Assembly: GCF_056746865.1 (NCBI RefSeq)
Contig: NZ_CM163382.1
DNA length: 64,000 nt
Reading direction: 5' to 3' (one strand)
Below are positions 57,601 through 64,000 of this stretch, one piece after another. The position numbers are program-made. How positions within the stretch are numbered: position 1 is the stretch's first letter; each line of letters begins with the position of its first letter.

Positions 57601-60600
57601 CCGCAGGGAATGACCAGAACGGAGCGCGAAGAATTAAAAAGTTTCGCTACACAGTGCGGGAATGCTGGCGACATCCAAAGTCTGGAACGCACTTTAATTA
57701 TGATTGCGCACTGGATGCGCCAGGGGCAAAGGGTTTCATTTACTGAATATGCCAGCCAGTGGACAGAGGCACAGCGCGAACGGAGCGACGGTAATCACTC
57801 AACACCCGAAATGGCGAAGCAATGGCCTTTCAGTGGTAAACGCTGTATCAGTCCCGGTGGTTCAGATTATTACCCTGCTGGTGTGGGAGATGAGCCATGT
57901 TGTGACGAGACTGAAATCCGCCACGCAGTGACAGTAATTACCGCTGAATACCCACAATTTAACCTTGACGGACTGGCGCTCCACAACCGGAATGCGGACT
58001 GGGAAAACCCGCTTGATAACCCGTCATTTATCGTATCGGCGAAAAGCTGCCTGAGATGGATCAGAGACAACGGGATGAGTAATGCCCAGATTGAGAGCTT
58101 CCCGCAGGATAACCCCACATCTGACACGTTGAAGCATGAAGTGGAGCGATATAACCAGATAAACCACCAGCACAGTGATCACCCGCACTATATCCCCAAC
58201 GGAGCATTTATTGCGGCGATGGTGGCAAGCGGCTACAAGGTTAAACCAGCGGGAAGAATGAACGCATTTTTCAATATTTCAAAAAAGGGATTATGTGCTG
58301 CTATGGGTAAAAATTAAATAAATGGTACAGGTCTGTACAGGTGGGTAGAGGTCATTTTTACCCACCTGTACCACCTGTAGGCCGCGCCACACAAGGGTTT
58401 GTGGCATGGTGGTACAGGTGGTACAGCAAAAACAGCGATTTTCTTTATAAGGTATGTTTTGCTCATCTGGCAGACGGAGGTATTCGCTGCGGTTTGGCAC
58501 ATAGCCCAGAACAGGAAAGAGTTTTACGAGACTTTTGTAAAATCCAGTGTACAAGGGCGTGACGTTTTTGAAGGTGAGCACTACGAAATTTTCGTAGTTC
58601 AAAAAATAGCCTCTGAGATGTTGTTATGCCTGTTCAGCAAACCATCCGCATAGCTGATCGCGAATCAAATTACCAATGGAGCCAGAAGCAAGGGCAGAAC
58701 TGGAAAGCGCCTGCCATGAAGAGTAATGCGACACCATAAATATAGTTTTTAGAGTCCATAAAAAACCTGTCAAAACTTGACACACAGAACGATGCCACCA
58801 GCTACTGAGCGGTGGCATTTTCTTGTGCTATTCGTTTCACATTTTGCAATGAACATGATGAATATTGCGTTTTATGAAACTATAATAACTGTTGTTTTAT
58901 ACAGTTCTAAGGGGGCGTTATGGCTATTTCAGTAAAGCCGGTATTGATAAGTGAGAAGCAAATGGAAGCGATAAAGAAAATTCAGGAAGAGCAGCGTAAA
59001 AAATCAGGAATTGGAGTAGCGCCAACTCTACATGAAATTGCACGAGGGTTAATAGATAAGGCGCTGGCAGGCTGTATGTGAAAATGGATGGCATCGCATG
59101 GAACTAAAATTTATTGATAACCCTGTGCGATTACAGGCCTTTCTTAACGATCCTGGCAATACCGAAAATATTGTTGAGCCGGGGCACACGTACTACATCA
59201 AGCCTGATGCGGTATATCTCGGCATCTACGAAGGATTGGTGCTGGCTGGCGTTCATGAAGTGCGTAACTTCTGGCATAGCATTGTTGAATGCCATGCGGT
59301 GTACGACCCCGGATTCCGTGGTGAATATGCACTGCAAGGGCATCGATTATTCTGCAAATGGCTTCTCGAAAACTCACCATTCCTTAACAGCATTACCATG
59401 GTTCCTGACACCACCAAATACGGACGGGCAATTATCCGTTTGCTTGGCGCTACCCGTGTTGGTCACCTTGATGATGCTTATATCAGATGTGGTAAACCCG
59501 TCGGCGTAACGCTTTATCAGTTAACTCGGCAACAATATAAGGAATTCAGCGAATGTTAATTACCCATATAGCTCATAAACATCTCAATCGTGCCGTATAC
59601 GAAAAAGGCGGTGATGGTGGTGCCTCTAAAGCTCAGGCGAAGGCCCAGCAGCAGGCAATTGATTTGCAGCGCGAGCAGTGGAATACGGTGATGAATAATC
59701 TCAAGCCGTATGCAGAAGTCGGATTGCCTGCTTTACAACAACTACAAGGACTGATGACTCTGGAAGGGCAGAATAAAGCCGCGAATGATTTCTTTGGTTC
59801 TGGTTTATATAAAACACAGGCAGATCAGGCCCGTTATCAGAACCTTGTCTCAGCAGAAGCTACCGGGGGGCTTGGCTCAACAGCTACCAGTAACCAGTTA
59901 TCTTCCATTGCGCCCATGCTTTATAACAATTGGCTTAGTGGGCAAATGCAAAATTATGGAAACCTGCTAAATGTCGGGATGAATGCGGCATCAGGGCAGG
60001 CAACGGCAGGGCAAAACTACGCCAATAATACCGGACAACTCTTGCAGGGGCTTGGCGCTATTCGTGCAGGTCAGGCGCAGCAGCCATCCAGTCTTGCGCG
60101 TGGTATTGGTGGGGCAGCATCAGGCGCTTTAGCGGGTGCGCAACTTGGTTCCGTTGTTCCTGGAATAGGAACTGCGGCCGGCGCTATTGGTGGTGGGCTT
60201 ATTGGTCTTGTTGGGGGGCTTGGATTCTAATGGCGACATGGCAACTTGGCGGGCTGCCTAGCATGGCACCGCAAAATGATAATGCTCCTCGTTCTTCCGT
60301 TCCTCAGCCTGTGCAGTATCAGCAGCAGCCAAACGTAGGTTTAATGGCGCTACAGGGGCTAAGAGGCGTTGCTGAGATTAATCAGCAGGCGCAAATTTCC
60401 CAGCAGCTAAAAGAATATCAGGCACGGTTGGGTAGTGCGGTAGCTAATAATGATCGTGTTGGCGTGCAGAAGTTAATGGCCCAGTATCCCCAGTTTATGG
60501 CTGATTCTCAAAAACAGATGGGATTCATTGATGCTGAGCAAAATCGGCAGACCGCTGACGCTGCCATGAATCTGCGTCTTGCGTCACAAACTGGAGATCC

Positions 60601-63600
60601 ACTGACCATGCAGAAGGCCATTCAGCAGGCAAATCCAGTATTACAGCGATTTGGTCTTCCTGCTGAAGAGGTTTATCAGTCTTGGCAGAATGACCCACAG
60701 GAATTCAACAGAATCACTGACCTCATCCACCTCCATGCTGATCCAAATAGTTACTTTAGTGTTCAAGAGAAGCAGCAAGGGCAGAGTATTGCACAGCAGA
60801 ACGCAGATACATCTGCATATAATGCTCAGGTTAATGCGGAGCAGGGTAATCGGCGGCTCGATATGGAGCAGTTCAAAGTCCTATCCGATAACCAACTACG
60901 CACGAGAGAAATGGTTCTGAAAGCACGACTTGGACGTGCTCAAAATGACATCGAGAGAGACAAGCTCAATGCTGAACTGAGCAAGGTACAGCAGGCGAAA
61001 GTGGAGAAGATGAACGATAAAATTAATACTGTTGCAGGTAATATCGACTCCTTGAACTCTGCGCTTGAAGTGGGTCATGAACTGGCGGGAATTGTAGGGA
61101 AACATCCTTCGGCCGTTACCCGTTCGCAGAACTATAACCCCCTGACGCTGGGGTTTGGATTCCTCCCTGATGTAGCAGAAGACACACGAAGCCTACGCGC
61201 CAAAGCTGATGAATACAACCTAAAGGTTATTCTGCCTAGCCTAAAAGGTACTTTTGGCTCTAACCCAACCGAAGGGGAAAGGGCTGCCCTTATGCAATCT
61301 CAAAATGGCATTAAGTCAGCAACCAGCAATGAGGCATTTTTGCGAGAGTTGAATAAAGCGCAGGACGTAATTATTCGAATGCAGAAACGACAGATTGCCG
61401 GGCTCGGTATTCCTGTAACCAAATCTAAGGACGAAGAAACTGATACCAAAATGCTGTTGCAGGATCCTTCACTGGTTAAGGATTATGTGACCGCACATGG
61501 CTATCTGCCGGAAAGTTACTATCAGGCAAAACTTAAGGGATGGCAATGATGGCACAACTGACAGAAAAACAGAAAGCCTATTCCCGTCATCTCGATGAAA
61601 AATATGGTTTCCCATCAGGGACGATGGAAACATTAGTTGGCAATGAATCTAGTGGTAACGGAAGTGCCGAGTCACCGAAAGGAGCTAGAGGATTTGCTCA
61701 ACTGATGCCCTCAGTAATGAGTGATGCTGGTTATCGTGGAACAGATCCGCGCTCACTGCCATTTGAAAAGCAAATGGATATCGCAGCAAACCATCTCAAT
61801 AAAGGAATGAAGCGATTTGGTGATATAGGTATGGCATTGGCTGGGTATAATTCTGGCTATGCTCGTATTAATGCCGTAAGAAACGGTAAATCTACACTGC
61901 CAGATGAAACGGCTAATTACGTAAGTAAATTTGCAGATGCCGGAATAATCCCTGATGACAGTGAAATCTTGCAGTTTGCACAAACCAGTCAACATCGCAA
62001 TCTTCAGCAGCCTGACTACTCAGAGCTTGATAAAGAAATCTCTCAGGTGGGAGATATTTCTGCATGGGAAGCAAAACGTCAGCAATTTAAGAACATAGAA
62101 GCAGGACTACCAACAGCCAGTTCATGGGAGCAGAAAAGAGCTCAGTTTCTCGCCGATGAAAATGCCGGGGAACCGCAGCAGCAAGTAGCCAAGTCTAACC
62201 TTAATCCTGAGATGGAATATCTTTCGCCAGGACTGAAAGCTGCGCCAGAGCAGATGGCCAGAGGGATTGCTAATATACCGTTTGATGTAATGGACGCAGG
62301 CGTGGGGGTAGTCAATGCGGCGCAATCAGCCGGAGCATGGGCAGCTCAGAAGCTTGGTGTGGGTGATGGCACATACACGCCCATATCACCTGTCTTTCGC
62401 CCAGTAGACCAACCTACAGATCCATACGCGCAGGCTGGTGAGCAGCTAGCACCTTACCTTATTACAGGATTAGGTGCAGGAAAGGCAGCTACCGCAGCTT
62501 CTTCAGTTGCCAACGCTCCACGTGCTGAACGTGCGGCCACAAAGGTGGCTAGTATGTTGGCAGAAAACCTGCCAGGTACATTGGTGAACGCCCAAAAGAA
62601 CGGGCAGATCAGCCCAGAAGACCTAGCAAAAGAGACAGGTATTGGCCTAGCAGGATCGCTAGGAGCACGCGCTTTAATAAAGAGCGGACAGACAGCCAGT
62701 GACGTAATGCGAGATGTATTGCGGAGTAATACAAATCAATCAGGCCATGTGTTAGGGGCAGCAAATACTCTGGAAACCGCCAATGATGTATCGAAAGCAG
62801 CGCGTTCTGCCGTAGGCCGAGAGCATATCGCATCGCAGGCATCAAACGTCAGAGATGATGTCGCTAAGGCGGCGAAAATCACTGGTATTAATATCAACAC
62901 CCTGACGCCTGGAATGCGCTCAGGTAGTCGTGGAATTGCCCAAGCAGAAGGTGTTCTGGCATCAACTCCTGGGAATGTTCAGGATGCTCACCTTACGGCC
63001 TTCAATGAAATATCCTCAAAGTTGAATAAGCAGTTGTCTGATTTCGGTGCTGAGTCTGGAAGCGCATCAGAAAAAAGCGCAGCAATTAAAGAGCGCATCA
63101 TCGCGAGCCTCAGTGATATGAAAACAGCAGAGAATATGGCATGGGCAGAACTGCGAAGCACGATGCCACGCGAAAGGATGAAAATGAGTAATGGGATGGC
63201 TGTCGTCCAAGCAGAAAAAGCAGCCAATGTTCCACTCAGCCCGGAGATGAAACAGTTTCAGGCTGCCAACAACCAAGGTGGCGGCATAACCTTCGACGGG
63301 ATGAAGGCATGGCGTGCTAAGTTTGCTGATGCTGAACAAGCAAACACCCGGGCAGGTAAGGCCAATGCCGCCCGGATTGCCGGAGAAATGCGCAGAGCTA
63401 TCACTGATGACATGCGCATCATGGCTGAAAAAGGAAACTTCCTCACAGAATGGCAGAAAGCTAACGATCTCTCTAAAAGTTACATTATCGCCAAACAAAA
63501 TGCCGAATCTGTTTTTGGTCGAGATCTCGCATCAGACGCTATGGTAAGAAAAGGTGCCGATACGCTTAAGGCATCCGCAAACACTGGAACTGGAGCTTTT

Positions 63601-64000
63601 CACCGTCTTATCTCCGCGCTGCCGGAAGCAGAACGCCAACCAGCAATAGCATCTATTCTTCAGCATGCTGTGGCGCAGGGAGAGAAGGGAGGAATCGGTG
63701 AAGAGTCTGGTATCCAGTATTTTGCCAAGCTCATGACCCAGCAGAATGTAAACGCCATCAGTCGTCATGCGCCAGATCTCGGTAGAATGATGAAAGAGTT
63801 CGGTGTACTCGCTAAAGCCAGCACCAGACCGCAGCGATACGTAGAGCGCACGGGAAGAACAACTGAGGCTCTCAAAACGCTCGATTCAGGCCTTCCAAAG
63901 ATCGTCGGCGTGATTATGAACGGAGTTCAACAGTCAGGTGCGATCGCTGGAGGCTTTGGCGGTGGTGTAATTGGTTCGATTAGTGGTTTGGTTGCTGGTG

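Follow-up and report, generated by a model that had tools for sequence, protein, structure and literature searches.

This work concerns an ejection-protein cassette carried by an integrated island in a 64,000-nt stretch of the Escherichia coli chromosome (NCBI RefSeq assembly GCF_056746865.1, contig NZ_CM163382.1), hereafter called the window. The closest described element is EcCIMP1, a phage-inducible chromosomal island (PICI) of E. coli MP1 that is mobilised by the P22-like phage Kapi1 (Pick, Stadel & Raivio, ISME J 2025; PMC11773190). EcCIMP1 is excised as a 19,963-bp circle only when the Kapi1 prophage is present, and its transduction by Kapi1 requires its alpA and int, its AlpA being the master activator of the element. 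Transduction is rare, with ~5e3 transducing particles per ml. Induced lysogens give the same Kapi1 titre whether or not they carry EcCIMP1, and EcCIMP1 adds to the superinfection immunity of Kapi1 lysogens (all PMC11773190). In the same paper the genes of the cassette were labelled 'DNA transfer' or 'DUF2824', structural genes were stated to be absent and a packaging role was suggested; the word 'ejection' does not occur in its text, and the genes were not recognised as the P22 14-7-20-16 set. The interval at 58.9-64.0 kb of the window is almost certainly the ejection-protein operon of an EcCIMP1-family PICI satellite of ~20.9 kb that is inserted in the 3' end of yicC. The window element is a yicC-site variant of a satellite kind first published in 2025, and its protein families were already known.

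The cassette has its counterpart in the 14-7-20-16 block of P22 and other Lederbergvirus phages (E-proteins, the 'ejectosome'), with which it shares protein families, gene order and gene coupling. The likeness extends to the surroundings: in P22-like phages the block is flanked by the tail needle gene on one side and the sieA slot on the other, gene 16 is followed by a slot for an envelope protein ('sie'), and gp16 and gp20 vary most and are mosaic. Unlike in P22, the genes in the window belong to a satellite that lacks every other virion gene, and the island gp16 carries an N-terminal SLT domain.

P22-type ejection genes at the end of the window

The following genes were predicted in the operon, the last of them being called SLT-gp16 here:

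58920-59081, + strand: orf53, a 53-aa open reading frame (ORF) heading the operon (MAISVKPVLISEKQMEAIKK...), conserved in all E. coli and Citrobacter variants
59098-59559, + strand: homologue of P22 gene 14 (DUF2824, 'head morphogenesis'; PF11039, E=7e-62; phrog_651, E=1e-66)
59553-60230, + strand: P22 gp7-type ORF of 225 aa (ORF call)
60230-61549, + strand: P22 gp20-type ORF of 439 aa (ORF call)
61546-64000, + strand: SLT-gp16 ORF, open to the window end, with 818 codons in the window of 906 in total

A first-pass annotation of the window had described the last three ORFs as a coupled internal-virion-like module at 59553-64000. Their coordinates were borne out; all three are on the + strand, with overlapping junctions. 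The module itself, however, does not start at 59553 but upstream, with orf53 and the gene-14 homologue. The ORFs of gp14 and gp7 overlap by 7 nt, those of gp7 and gp20 by 1 nt, and those of gp20 and gp16 at an ATGA, which is the pattern expected under translational coupling. Alternative ATG starts of SLT-gp16 lie at 61540 and 61549. The gene order 14-7-20-16 in one co-oriented coupled block (59098-64000) is the same as in Kapi1 and in Serratia P22-like prophages.

Profile searches unambiguously identify the genes at 59553-64000 as predicted homologues of P22 gp7, gp20 and gp16, in P22 order, in agreement with the early impression that they resemble ejection or internal core proteins of short-tailed phages. 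The product of 59553-60230 matches PF25688 P22_gp7 in Pfam (E=7e-73) and phrog_598 'DNA ejection' in PHROG (E=3e-70), and shares 58% identity with gp7 of Kapi1. It had been described as a glycine-zipper protein, and its hydrophobic, glycine-zipper C-terminus indeed contains 7 GxxxG motifs within the final 60 residues and 32% Gly in the final 50. The product of 60230-61549 matches PF16928 Inj_translocase (E=4e-22) as well as phrog_917 and phrog_2534 (E ~1e-43). It shares 26% identity with gp20 of Kapi1 and 46% with gp20 of a Serratia prophage, and its description as Q-rich fits a Gln content of 16% across residues 1-260. By these matches it is a predicted P22 gp20-type ejection protein, i.e., a putative periplasmic conduit.

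The 818 residues of SLT-gp16 in the window are 100% identical to the 906-aa protein WP_016231879.1 of E. coli G749. SLT-gp16 matches phrog_770 'DNA transfer protein' with E=3.5e-105 for the window part and E=5e-121 for the full length; residues 187-862 of the full-length protein cover profile positions 55-665 of 668, i.e., end to end, and its precomputed family assignment is PF26808 Phage_P22_gp16. The protein had been called giant, and at 906 aa it is large but not giant. An SLT lytic transglycosylase domain (residues ~15-117, catalytic Glu34) is fused to this gp16-type body (~187-862), and one hydrophobic segment spans residues 798-821. The early call of an N-terminal SLT region was confirmed by Pfam (PF01464, E=9e-13, residues 15-117). 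The SLT motifs E34-S35, GARGFAQLMP and LAGYNSG are all present. Across 71 homologues with 43-100% identity, the core motifs (ES, GAxGxxQxMP and AxYNxG) show invariant E34 and S35, invariant GA, G and Q, and an invariant Y, while the A and N of AxYNxG are kept in 69 of the 71. With these motifs, SLT-gp16 is predicted to be a family-1 lytic transglycosylase.

Phages Dewey and Huey as well as Serratia prophages were found to encode SLT-gp16 fusions too, which corrects the statement of a 2022 review that the SLT domain is absent from P22-like phages (PMC8954989). The closest gp16 versions in the phage collection and among the sampled prophages are 47-58% identical. A further parallel is the gp14-gp15-gp16 set of T7, in which a small membrane protein is likewise combined with one that forms a periplasmic tunnel and with a large one of the inner membrane. 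T7 gp16 also has an N-terminal lytic transglycosylase, with catalytic Glu37 (PMC8954989) corresponding to Glu34 in the island protein. Outside the SLT domain no sequence similarity was detected between the T7 ejectosome and the island proteins, and the latter are much smaller. A search of solved structures by sequence gave no match for gp14, gp7, gp20 or SLT-gp16. In a megablast of the region against the phage collection gene 14 alone was matched, indicating that no sequenced phage is the recent source of the cassette.

Island boundaries, satellite lineage and selection

The window consists of E. coli chromosome (waa, then yicC) followed by the island from ~46.2 kb. Since the window ends inside gene 16, the right part of its own copy was inferred from near-identical complete copies, chiefly that of G749, which shares 98.9% identity over window positions 52452-64000 (megablast). 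In the G749 locus (L001) an imperfect direct repeat of the end of yicC lies at 10590-10612 and 31482-31502. This repeat of the last yicC codons at both ends gives an island length of ~20.9 kb, and in island-free genomes homology resumes exactly at L001 31482. Gene 16 ends at L001 27280, so that the right attachment (att) core at 31482-31502 lies ~4.2 kb beyond it. The G749 island contains, in order, the integrase, an AlpA-type helix-turn-helix protein, AntA/B, DUF4222, Ash/Icd, small ORFs, the primase and three small ORFs; these are followed by gp14, gp7, gp20, SLT-gp16, a 232-aa lipoprotein, ImmA/IrrE with two further ORFs, and PerC, after which the chromosome resumes at yicG. In AF14 and MP1 the same element is found at tRNA-Thr (thrW), with a different integrase and with chromosomal genes at its borders.

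The first-pass annotation had left two readings of the island, a full prophage of unusual mosaic type or a satellite that has captured virion genes, and had proposed to look downstream for capsid, portal and terminase genes. No capsid, portal, terminase, tail, lysis or type IV secretion system (T4SS) genes are present in the complete islands of G749, AF14 and MP1, and the near-identical islands end ~4.2 kb past gene 16, which decides for the satellite. Upstream of the cassette are the primase and small ORFs, and downstream are the lipoprotein, cargo genes, PerC and the right att site, where a complete P22-like prophage would have terminase, portal, scaffold, coat, gp4/gp10/gp26 and tailspike genes on either side of the ejection genes; the true Serratia prophages (L009 and L012) contrast with this, their ejection genes lying within complete P22-like prophages. 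The island has the layout of a PICI: an integrase with flanking att repeats, AlpA and a primase in order and, as judged from the G749, AF14 and MP1 copies, a small size (about half the helper genome or less) without capsid, tail, terminase or lysis genes. A transglycosylase of a secretion or conjugation system (VirB1-like) or a tape-measure-like protein had also been considered, and the SLT domain together with a long ORF at the window edge is what would invite such readings, or that of a complete mosaic prophage. All three can be given almost no credence: the three complete genomes show neither T4SS nor tail neighbours, and the body of the protein (residues 187-862) aligns over its full length with the P22 gp16 family.

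The satellite is closely related to EcCIMP1. The cassette proteins of the window and EcCIMP1 share 98.7-99.7% amino acid identity, the G749 island and EcCIMP1 share 97-99% DNA identity over 12.5 kb, and both elements are ~20 kb in size. They also share the order alpA, PM1773-like gene, antA, DUF4222, ash, small ORFs, primase, orf53, gp14, gp7, gp20 and SLT-gp16, which in the full-length G749 copy is followed by the lipoprotein and PerC. By contrast, the window island has a different integrase and lies at the 3' end of yicC instead of at tRNA-Thr (thrW). Its primase has the C-terminal domain DUF5906, whereas that of EcCIMP1 has DUF927, and it contains two extra ORFs after the primase and an IS3 insertion between int and alpA.

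The description of the island as P4/CP4-like was upheld by a tyrosine integrase, AlpA, Ash, an Icd-like gene, C4 and int-alpA RNA motifs, and a Zn-ribbon/Toprim primase. With P4 and P4-like elements it shares the integrase, AlpA, this type of primase, the Ash and Icd-like genes, a C4/isrK antisense motif and a variable slot for defence cargo. Pfam and PHROG scans of the island ORFs gave no homologue of Sid, Psu or Delta, and the RefSeq annotations of the complete copies name none; the island is therefore not a P4-type satellite in the strict sense. Its presumed helper is a P22-like podophage rather than P2, and its putative helper-exploitation module is the ejection cassette rather than a capsid-size module. 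EcCICFT073, EcCIEDL933 and the capsid-forming PICIs (cfPICIs) resemble the island in their int-alpA-primase backbone, in PerC and in having a morphogenesis or packaging module downstream of the primase, but what they encode is packaging redirection of the Rpp/TerS type or a capsid, and the literature search described below found none of them on record with ejection proteins.

All SLT-gp16 homologues with at least 78% identity are in satellite contexts (E. coli, Citrobacter, and another enterobacterium at a yicG-ligB site). The next relatives, at no more than 58% identity, are in complete Serratia P22-like prophages, and the closest sequenced phages are Dewey and Huey (47% identity). This gap points to a long-standing satellite lineage rather than a recent pick-up, and the satellite copies of the cassette form, as judged by protein identity, a clade of their own. 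Between the E. coli and Citrobacter satellite copies the ratio of nonsynonymous to synonymous substitution rates (dN/dS) is 0.02 for orf53, 0.06 for gp14, 0.04 for gp7, 0.06 for gp20 and 0.07 for SLT-gp16, with dS >1 for all five genes. By these ratios the cassette is evidently under strong purifying selection in satellites. At a coverage of at least 80%, the block of leader, orf53, gp14, gp7 and gp20 start occurs in 252 of 5426 complete E. coli genomes (~4.6%, in a satellite context), and the gp20, SLT-gp16 and lipoprotein of the window type occur in 71 of the 5426, nearly all at ≥99% identity.

These data bear on the idea that the cassette is a non-functional relic, a piece of P22-like prophage brought into a P4-like island by recombination and hitch-hiking there. 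Some copies are indeed frameshifted or cut by insertion sequences (IS), and gene 14 still shares ~82-90% DNA identity with P22-like coliphages. A relic would, however, hardly be expected to keep one arrangement across genera, at either of two chromosomal sites and with either of two integrases, nor to show the low dN/dS values and the presence in 252 genomes given above, and in EcCIMP1 the cassette lies within the excised circle. Selection and distribution thus largely refute a relic, which we regard as very improbable. Several results, namely the distribution of SLT-gp16 homologues, the selection, the prevalence in E. coli and a presumed transcription unit of its own with a conserved promoter, say that the cassette is a functional part of the satellite.

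Operon head and other parts of the island

Upstream of and at the start of the operon, the following elements were predicted:

58323-58426, no strand assigned: candidate origin repeats, at least 6 GGTACAGGT-type 9-nt copies in both orientations (repeat search families D1-D4 and I1-I6)
58801-58816, + strand: terminator hairpin followed by a T-run (terminator scan)
58881-58907, + strand: presumed activator-dependent promoter/operator, with a TATAAT -10 element (58881-58886) and then an inverted repeat ACTGT-N8/9-ACAGT (five-element alignment)

A hairpin with a T-run, of different stem sequence, is found at the equivalent place in the Citrobacter element, and the predicted terminator would insulate the ejection operon from the upstream genes. 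The promoter region lacks a good -35 element. In an alignment of five elements, including that of Citrobacter, the repeat arms and the -10 element are invariant while the spacer varies, and the segment at 58881-58907 is presumed to be the activator-dependent promoter and operator of the ejection operon. Two other candidates in this region were rejected. A TGT-N12-ACA dyad of the P2 Ogr/Delta type at 58824-58841, considered as an activator site, is not kept in other E. coli elements or in Citrobacter; and of a 29-aa hydrophobic ORF on the minus strand (58673-58759), considered as a small toxin, the first five codons alone are conserved in Citrobacter-type elements. The GGTACAGGT-type repeat cluster is a candidate replication origin because the primase adjoins it. 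This cluster lies upstream of ~58516, where island variants with different primases regain homology.

The product of orf53 shares 91% amino acid identity between E. coli and Citrobacter, and the gene is present even in variants without gp14 and gp7. No match to orf53 was found in the Pfam and PHROG scans; its product may be a small DNA-binding protein. The gene-14 homologue shares 83% identity with Kapi1 gp055. Its AlphaFold2 (AF2) model (pLDDT 80.8) was matched by Foldseek to SpeG and many other GNATs (TM ~0.75, E ~1e-8), and the beta4-alpha3 loop, the acetyl-CoA-binding site of GNATs, contains an invariant Gly75. A GNAT acetyltransferase fold is therefore predicted from the model, and this fold and the position of Gly75 suggest that the gene-14 product, an accessory protein for the ejection proteins, may be an enzyme.

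The remaining parts of the island in the window are as follows:

46209-46231, + strand: left attachment core, the last codons of yicC (CAGATTCAGAATATCGAATAA-like), mapped via the window/G749 alignment, with the position inferred to a few bases
46418-47677, + strand: tyrosine integrase with Arm-binding, central and catalytic domains (Pfam PF13356, PF22022 and PF00589; the G749 homologue is annotated as integrase)
47686-47752, + strand: int-alpA RNA motif between int and alpA (Rfam RF02996, 60.6 bits, gathering score 35.8)
47858-49131, + strand: IS3-family transposase orfA/orfB, inserted between int and alpA (Pfam HTH_Tnp_1, rve and rve_3)
50189-50392, + strand: AlpA-family regulator (PF05930, E=2e-8)
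50836-51669, + strand: AntA/AntB antirepressor-family protein (PF08346, E=1e-21)
51838-52869, + strand: Ash-family ORF (PF10554)
52219-52295: isrK RNA motif inside the ash ORF (Rfam RF01394, 64.3 bits)
52320-52407: C4 antisense RNA motif inside the ash ORF (Rfam RF01695, 77.1 bits)
54829-57183, + strand: primase/replicase of the P4 alpha type with Zn-ribbon, Toprim and DUF5906 (PF08273, PF13362 and PF19263; phrog_2249 'DNA primase', E=1e-92)

The isrK and C4 motifs within the ash ORF suggest an antisense immunity like that of P1 and P4. The IS3 stretch is absent from the G749 copy, and the alignment of the window to L001 is interrupted over 47732-50297; the insertion may alter int-alpA regulation and hence the mobility of the window's copy. 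The cargo between the lipoprotein gene and PerC is variable (L001 29102-30413 versus L002 29010-30457). G749 and GN06758 carry ImmA/IrrE (CapP-like, PADLOC E=8e-25) with a partner ORF, and AF14 carries an Abi-family protein. By its content this slot looks like a satellite defence hotspot. On the chromosomal side, a putative IS200/IS605-type TnpA-like ORF (…HTRWNCKYHIVF…HIHMLVEIPP…) was read by eye at 43889-44398 on the minus strand, within a 706-bp stretch that is inserted, compared with G749, between pyrE and rph.

Allelic types and a proposed role in DNA entry

The first 161 nt of gene 20 are 98.8-100% identical among the sampled genomes; beyond this point gene 20 and gene 16 switch types, and at least three gp20/gp16 allelic types stand behind one shared leader:

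Window type: gp20 of 439 aa and gp16 of 906 aa with SLT (window, G749 and EcCIMP1)
Second type: gp20 of 473 aa and gp16 of 701 aa (MMC-J-0085)
Kapi1-like type: gp20 of 447 aa, 75% identical to that of Kapi1, and gp16 of 705 aa, 41% identical to that of Kapi1 (GN06758)

The GN06758 variant (L010 13406-17029) lacks gp14 and gp7 and has an orf53 homologue followed directly by gp20 and gp16. That this variant keeps gp20 and gp16 alone marks the gp20-gp16 pair as the conserved core of the module. In every cassette type examined the gene after gene 16 encodes an envelope protein, of which there are three kinds:

L001 27431-28129, just past the window end: 232-aa lipoprotein with an LLAGC lipobox (G749; identical in AF14 and MP1)
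L005 17546-18160, minus strand: SieA-like protein of 204 aa with multiple transmembrane segments (phrog_7745, E=4e-4; NRYPGEA motif)
L010 17049-17444, minus strand: unrelated protein of 131 aa with multiple transmembrane segments, in the same slot after gene 16 (GN06758)

The NRYPGEA motif resembles the published SieA motif FnRYPnEA. The 232-aa lipoprotein had no match in Pfam, PHROG or PADLOC and no tblastn match in phages, and a search for homologues gave a distant link to DUF4136 only. It is a candidate for the superinfection immunity of EcCIMP1. The block as a whole, or mainly this downstream membrane or lipoprotein gene, might serve the resident state by barring the entry of P22-like DNA, with the ejection genes as passengers or decoys. 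The contribution of EcCIMP1 to the superinfection immunity of Kapi1 lysogens (PMC11773190) and the constant presence of an envelope protein (lipoprotein, SieA-like or multi-transmembrane) in the slot after gene 16 would agree with this. The exclusion phenotype of EcCIMP1, however, is not assigned to any gene, the operon's own terminator and its promoter without a -35 element fit induced rather than constitutive expression, and a decoy role leaves purifying selection on ~4.9 kb, including the SLT catalytic residues, unexplained. We consider this explanation improbable for the block, though an exclusion role may apply to the gene downstream of gene 16.

We lean towards a different role, in which the satellite ejection proteins are loaded into helper-built particles and give these a satellite-specified channel for DNA injection. 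When a P22-like helper goes lytic, the satellite AlpA would switch the island on, as was shown for EcCIMP1, and the ejection operon would be transcribed. Satellite gp7, gp20 and SLT-gp16 would be recruited to helper procapsids, and headful packaging of satellite DNA, with about two 20-21-kb satellite genomes per ~41-kb headful, would yield particles with a satellite-specified gp20-gp16 conduit. On the next cell the ejection proteins would leave first; SLT would cut the peptidoglycan, gp7 and gp20 would bridge the outer membrane and periplasm, and gp16 would open the inner membrane. The steps from expression of the operon onward are those that we infer. The sizes fit, as two copies of 19,963 bp or of ~20,900 bp compare with the Kapi1 genome of 39,436 bp at a 104% headful.

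Work on P22 provides the background for such an exchange. The E-proteins of P22 are recruited into procapsids independently, via the scaffolding protein (PMC8402733), and whole E-protein sets of Sf6, L, HK620 and CUS-3 function in P22 at 21-50% identity (PMC10461980). In P22, gp7 can be exchanged while gp16 and gp20 have to be cognate; the latter two are also the targets of SieA exclusion, with escape mutations in the C-terminal regions of both, and the HK620 set escapes SieA in part (PMC10461980). Loading into helper particles would accordingly account for the pattern seen in the satellites, where the cognate, exclusion-targeted gp20-gp16 pair is always kept and the exchangeable gp7 and gp14 are sometimes lost. 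Since gp20 has to match gp16 and both are targeted by SieA-type exclusion, a pair of its own would make the satellite independent of the allele of its helper. That the pair also gives satellite DNA access to cells from which the helper's type is excluded is possible but rather unlikely. A little less doubtful, though still tentative, is the broader proposal that ejection-protein replacement is a distinct satellite strategy, in which helper particles are re-armed with a muralytic-headed conduit and there is neither capsid remodelling nor terminase redirection; the alleles and the slot for sieA-like and lipoprotein genes would in that case stem from an arms race about DNA entry, with the satellite evading exclusion and excluding competitors.

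Several points weigh against the loading of satellite ejection proteins into helper particles. The EcCIMP1 cassette is only 25-26% identical to Kapi1 in gp20 and gp16, and its compatibility with Kapi1 procapsids is assumed. Transduction of EcCIMP1 by Kapi1 is rare, at ~5e3 particles per ml, and Kapi1 titres are unchanged by EcCIMP1, though massive non-cognate co-assembly might lower them (PMC11773190). A comparison of the island (G749 and EcCIMP1) with Kapi1 for a pac-site mimic or shared DNA found the match at gene 14 and the start of gene 7 alone (81-82%); no pac-like similarity to Kapi1 was found, which leaves the packaging step unexplained. Some copies are decaying, with a frameshift in gp20 of AF14 and a TW10690 copy partly deleted by an IS. 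SieA types A and B excluded most foreign E-protein sets in P22 (Leavitt et al., PMC10461980), so that evasion through allele switching is not guaranteed. Finally, the expression, particle entry and transfer role of the satellite ejection proteins are deduced from sequence.

The same co-assembly could instead harm the helper. Satellite E-proteins would enter helper virions, and a non-cognate mix of gp16 and gp20 would block injection, limiting the helper in favour of the satellite or the host population. Interference with the helper is a common satellite trait, generally known from Staphylococcus aureus pathogenicity islands (SaPI), P4 and the PICI-like elements (PLE). In addition, P22 virions with foreign gp16 alone or foreign gp20 alone assemble normally and are non-infectious (PMC10461980). 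Yet Kapi1 titres are the same with and without EcCIMP1 (PMC11773190), and the satellite supplies a cognate gp20-gp16 pair together with gp7, gp14 and an intact SLT, which is more than a poison needs. In one variant the pair even resembles the likely helper type (75% and 41% identity to Kapi1). We therefore regard interference as an unlikely purpose of the cassette and retain the loading of a functional satellite conduit as the favoured role.

A literature search for ejection proteins in PICIs and phage satellites returned, beyond the EcCIMP1 paper, a general review only. What appears to be new is the recognition of the cassette as a complete P22 14-7-20-16 ejection set in a satellite, where it appears to form a clade of its own under purifying selection with gp20/gp16 allelic switching. 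The minimal variant with gp20 and gp16 only, the SieA-like neighbour in one variant and, contrary to the review, the SLT-gp16 fusions in P22-like phages also appear to be new. Genes of such cassettes are routinely annotated as 'hypothetical' or 'lytic transglycosylase', and prophage finders will label such islands 'incomplete prophages'. The cassette would offer a natural system for two questions of P22 biology, namely what sets the compatibility of E-proteins with procapsids and what sets their sensitivity to SieA-type exclusion. Known satellites exploit their helpers by capsid resizing (P4 and SaPI), packaging redirection (Rpp and TerS types) and tail theft (cfPICI). If the proposed role is true, a satellite with a full set of proteins for a trans-envelope channel would extend helper exploitation to the entry step of the next infection.

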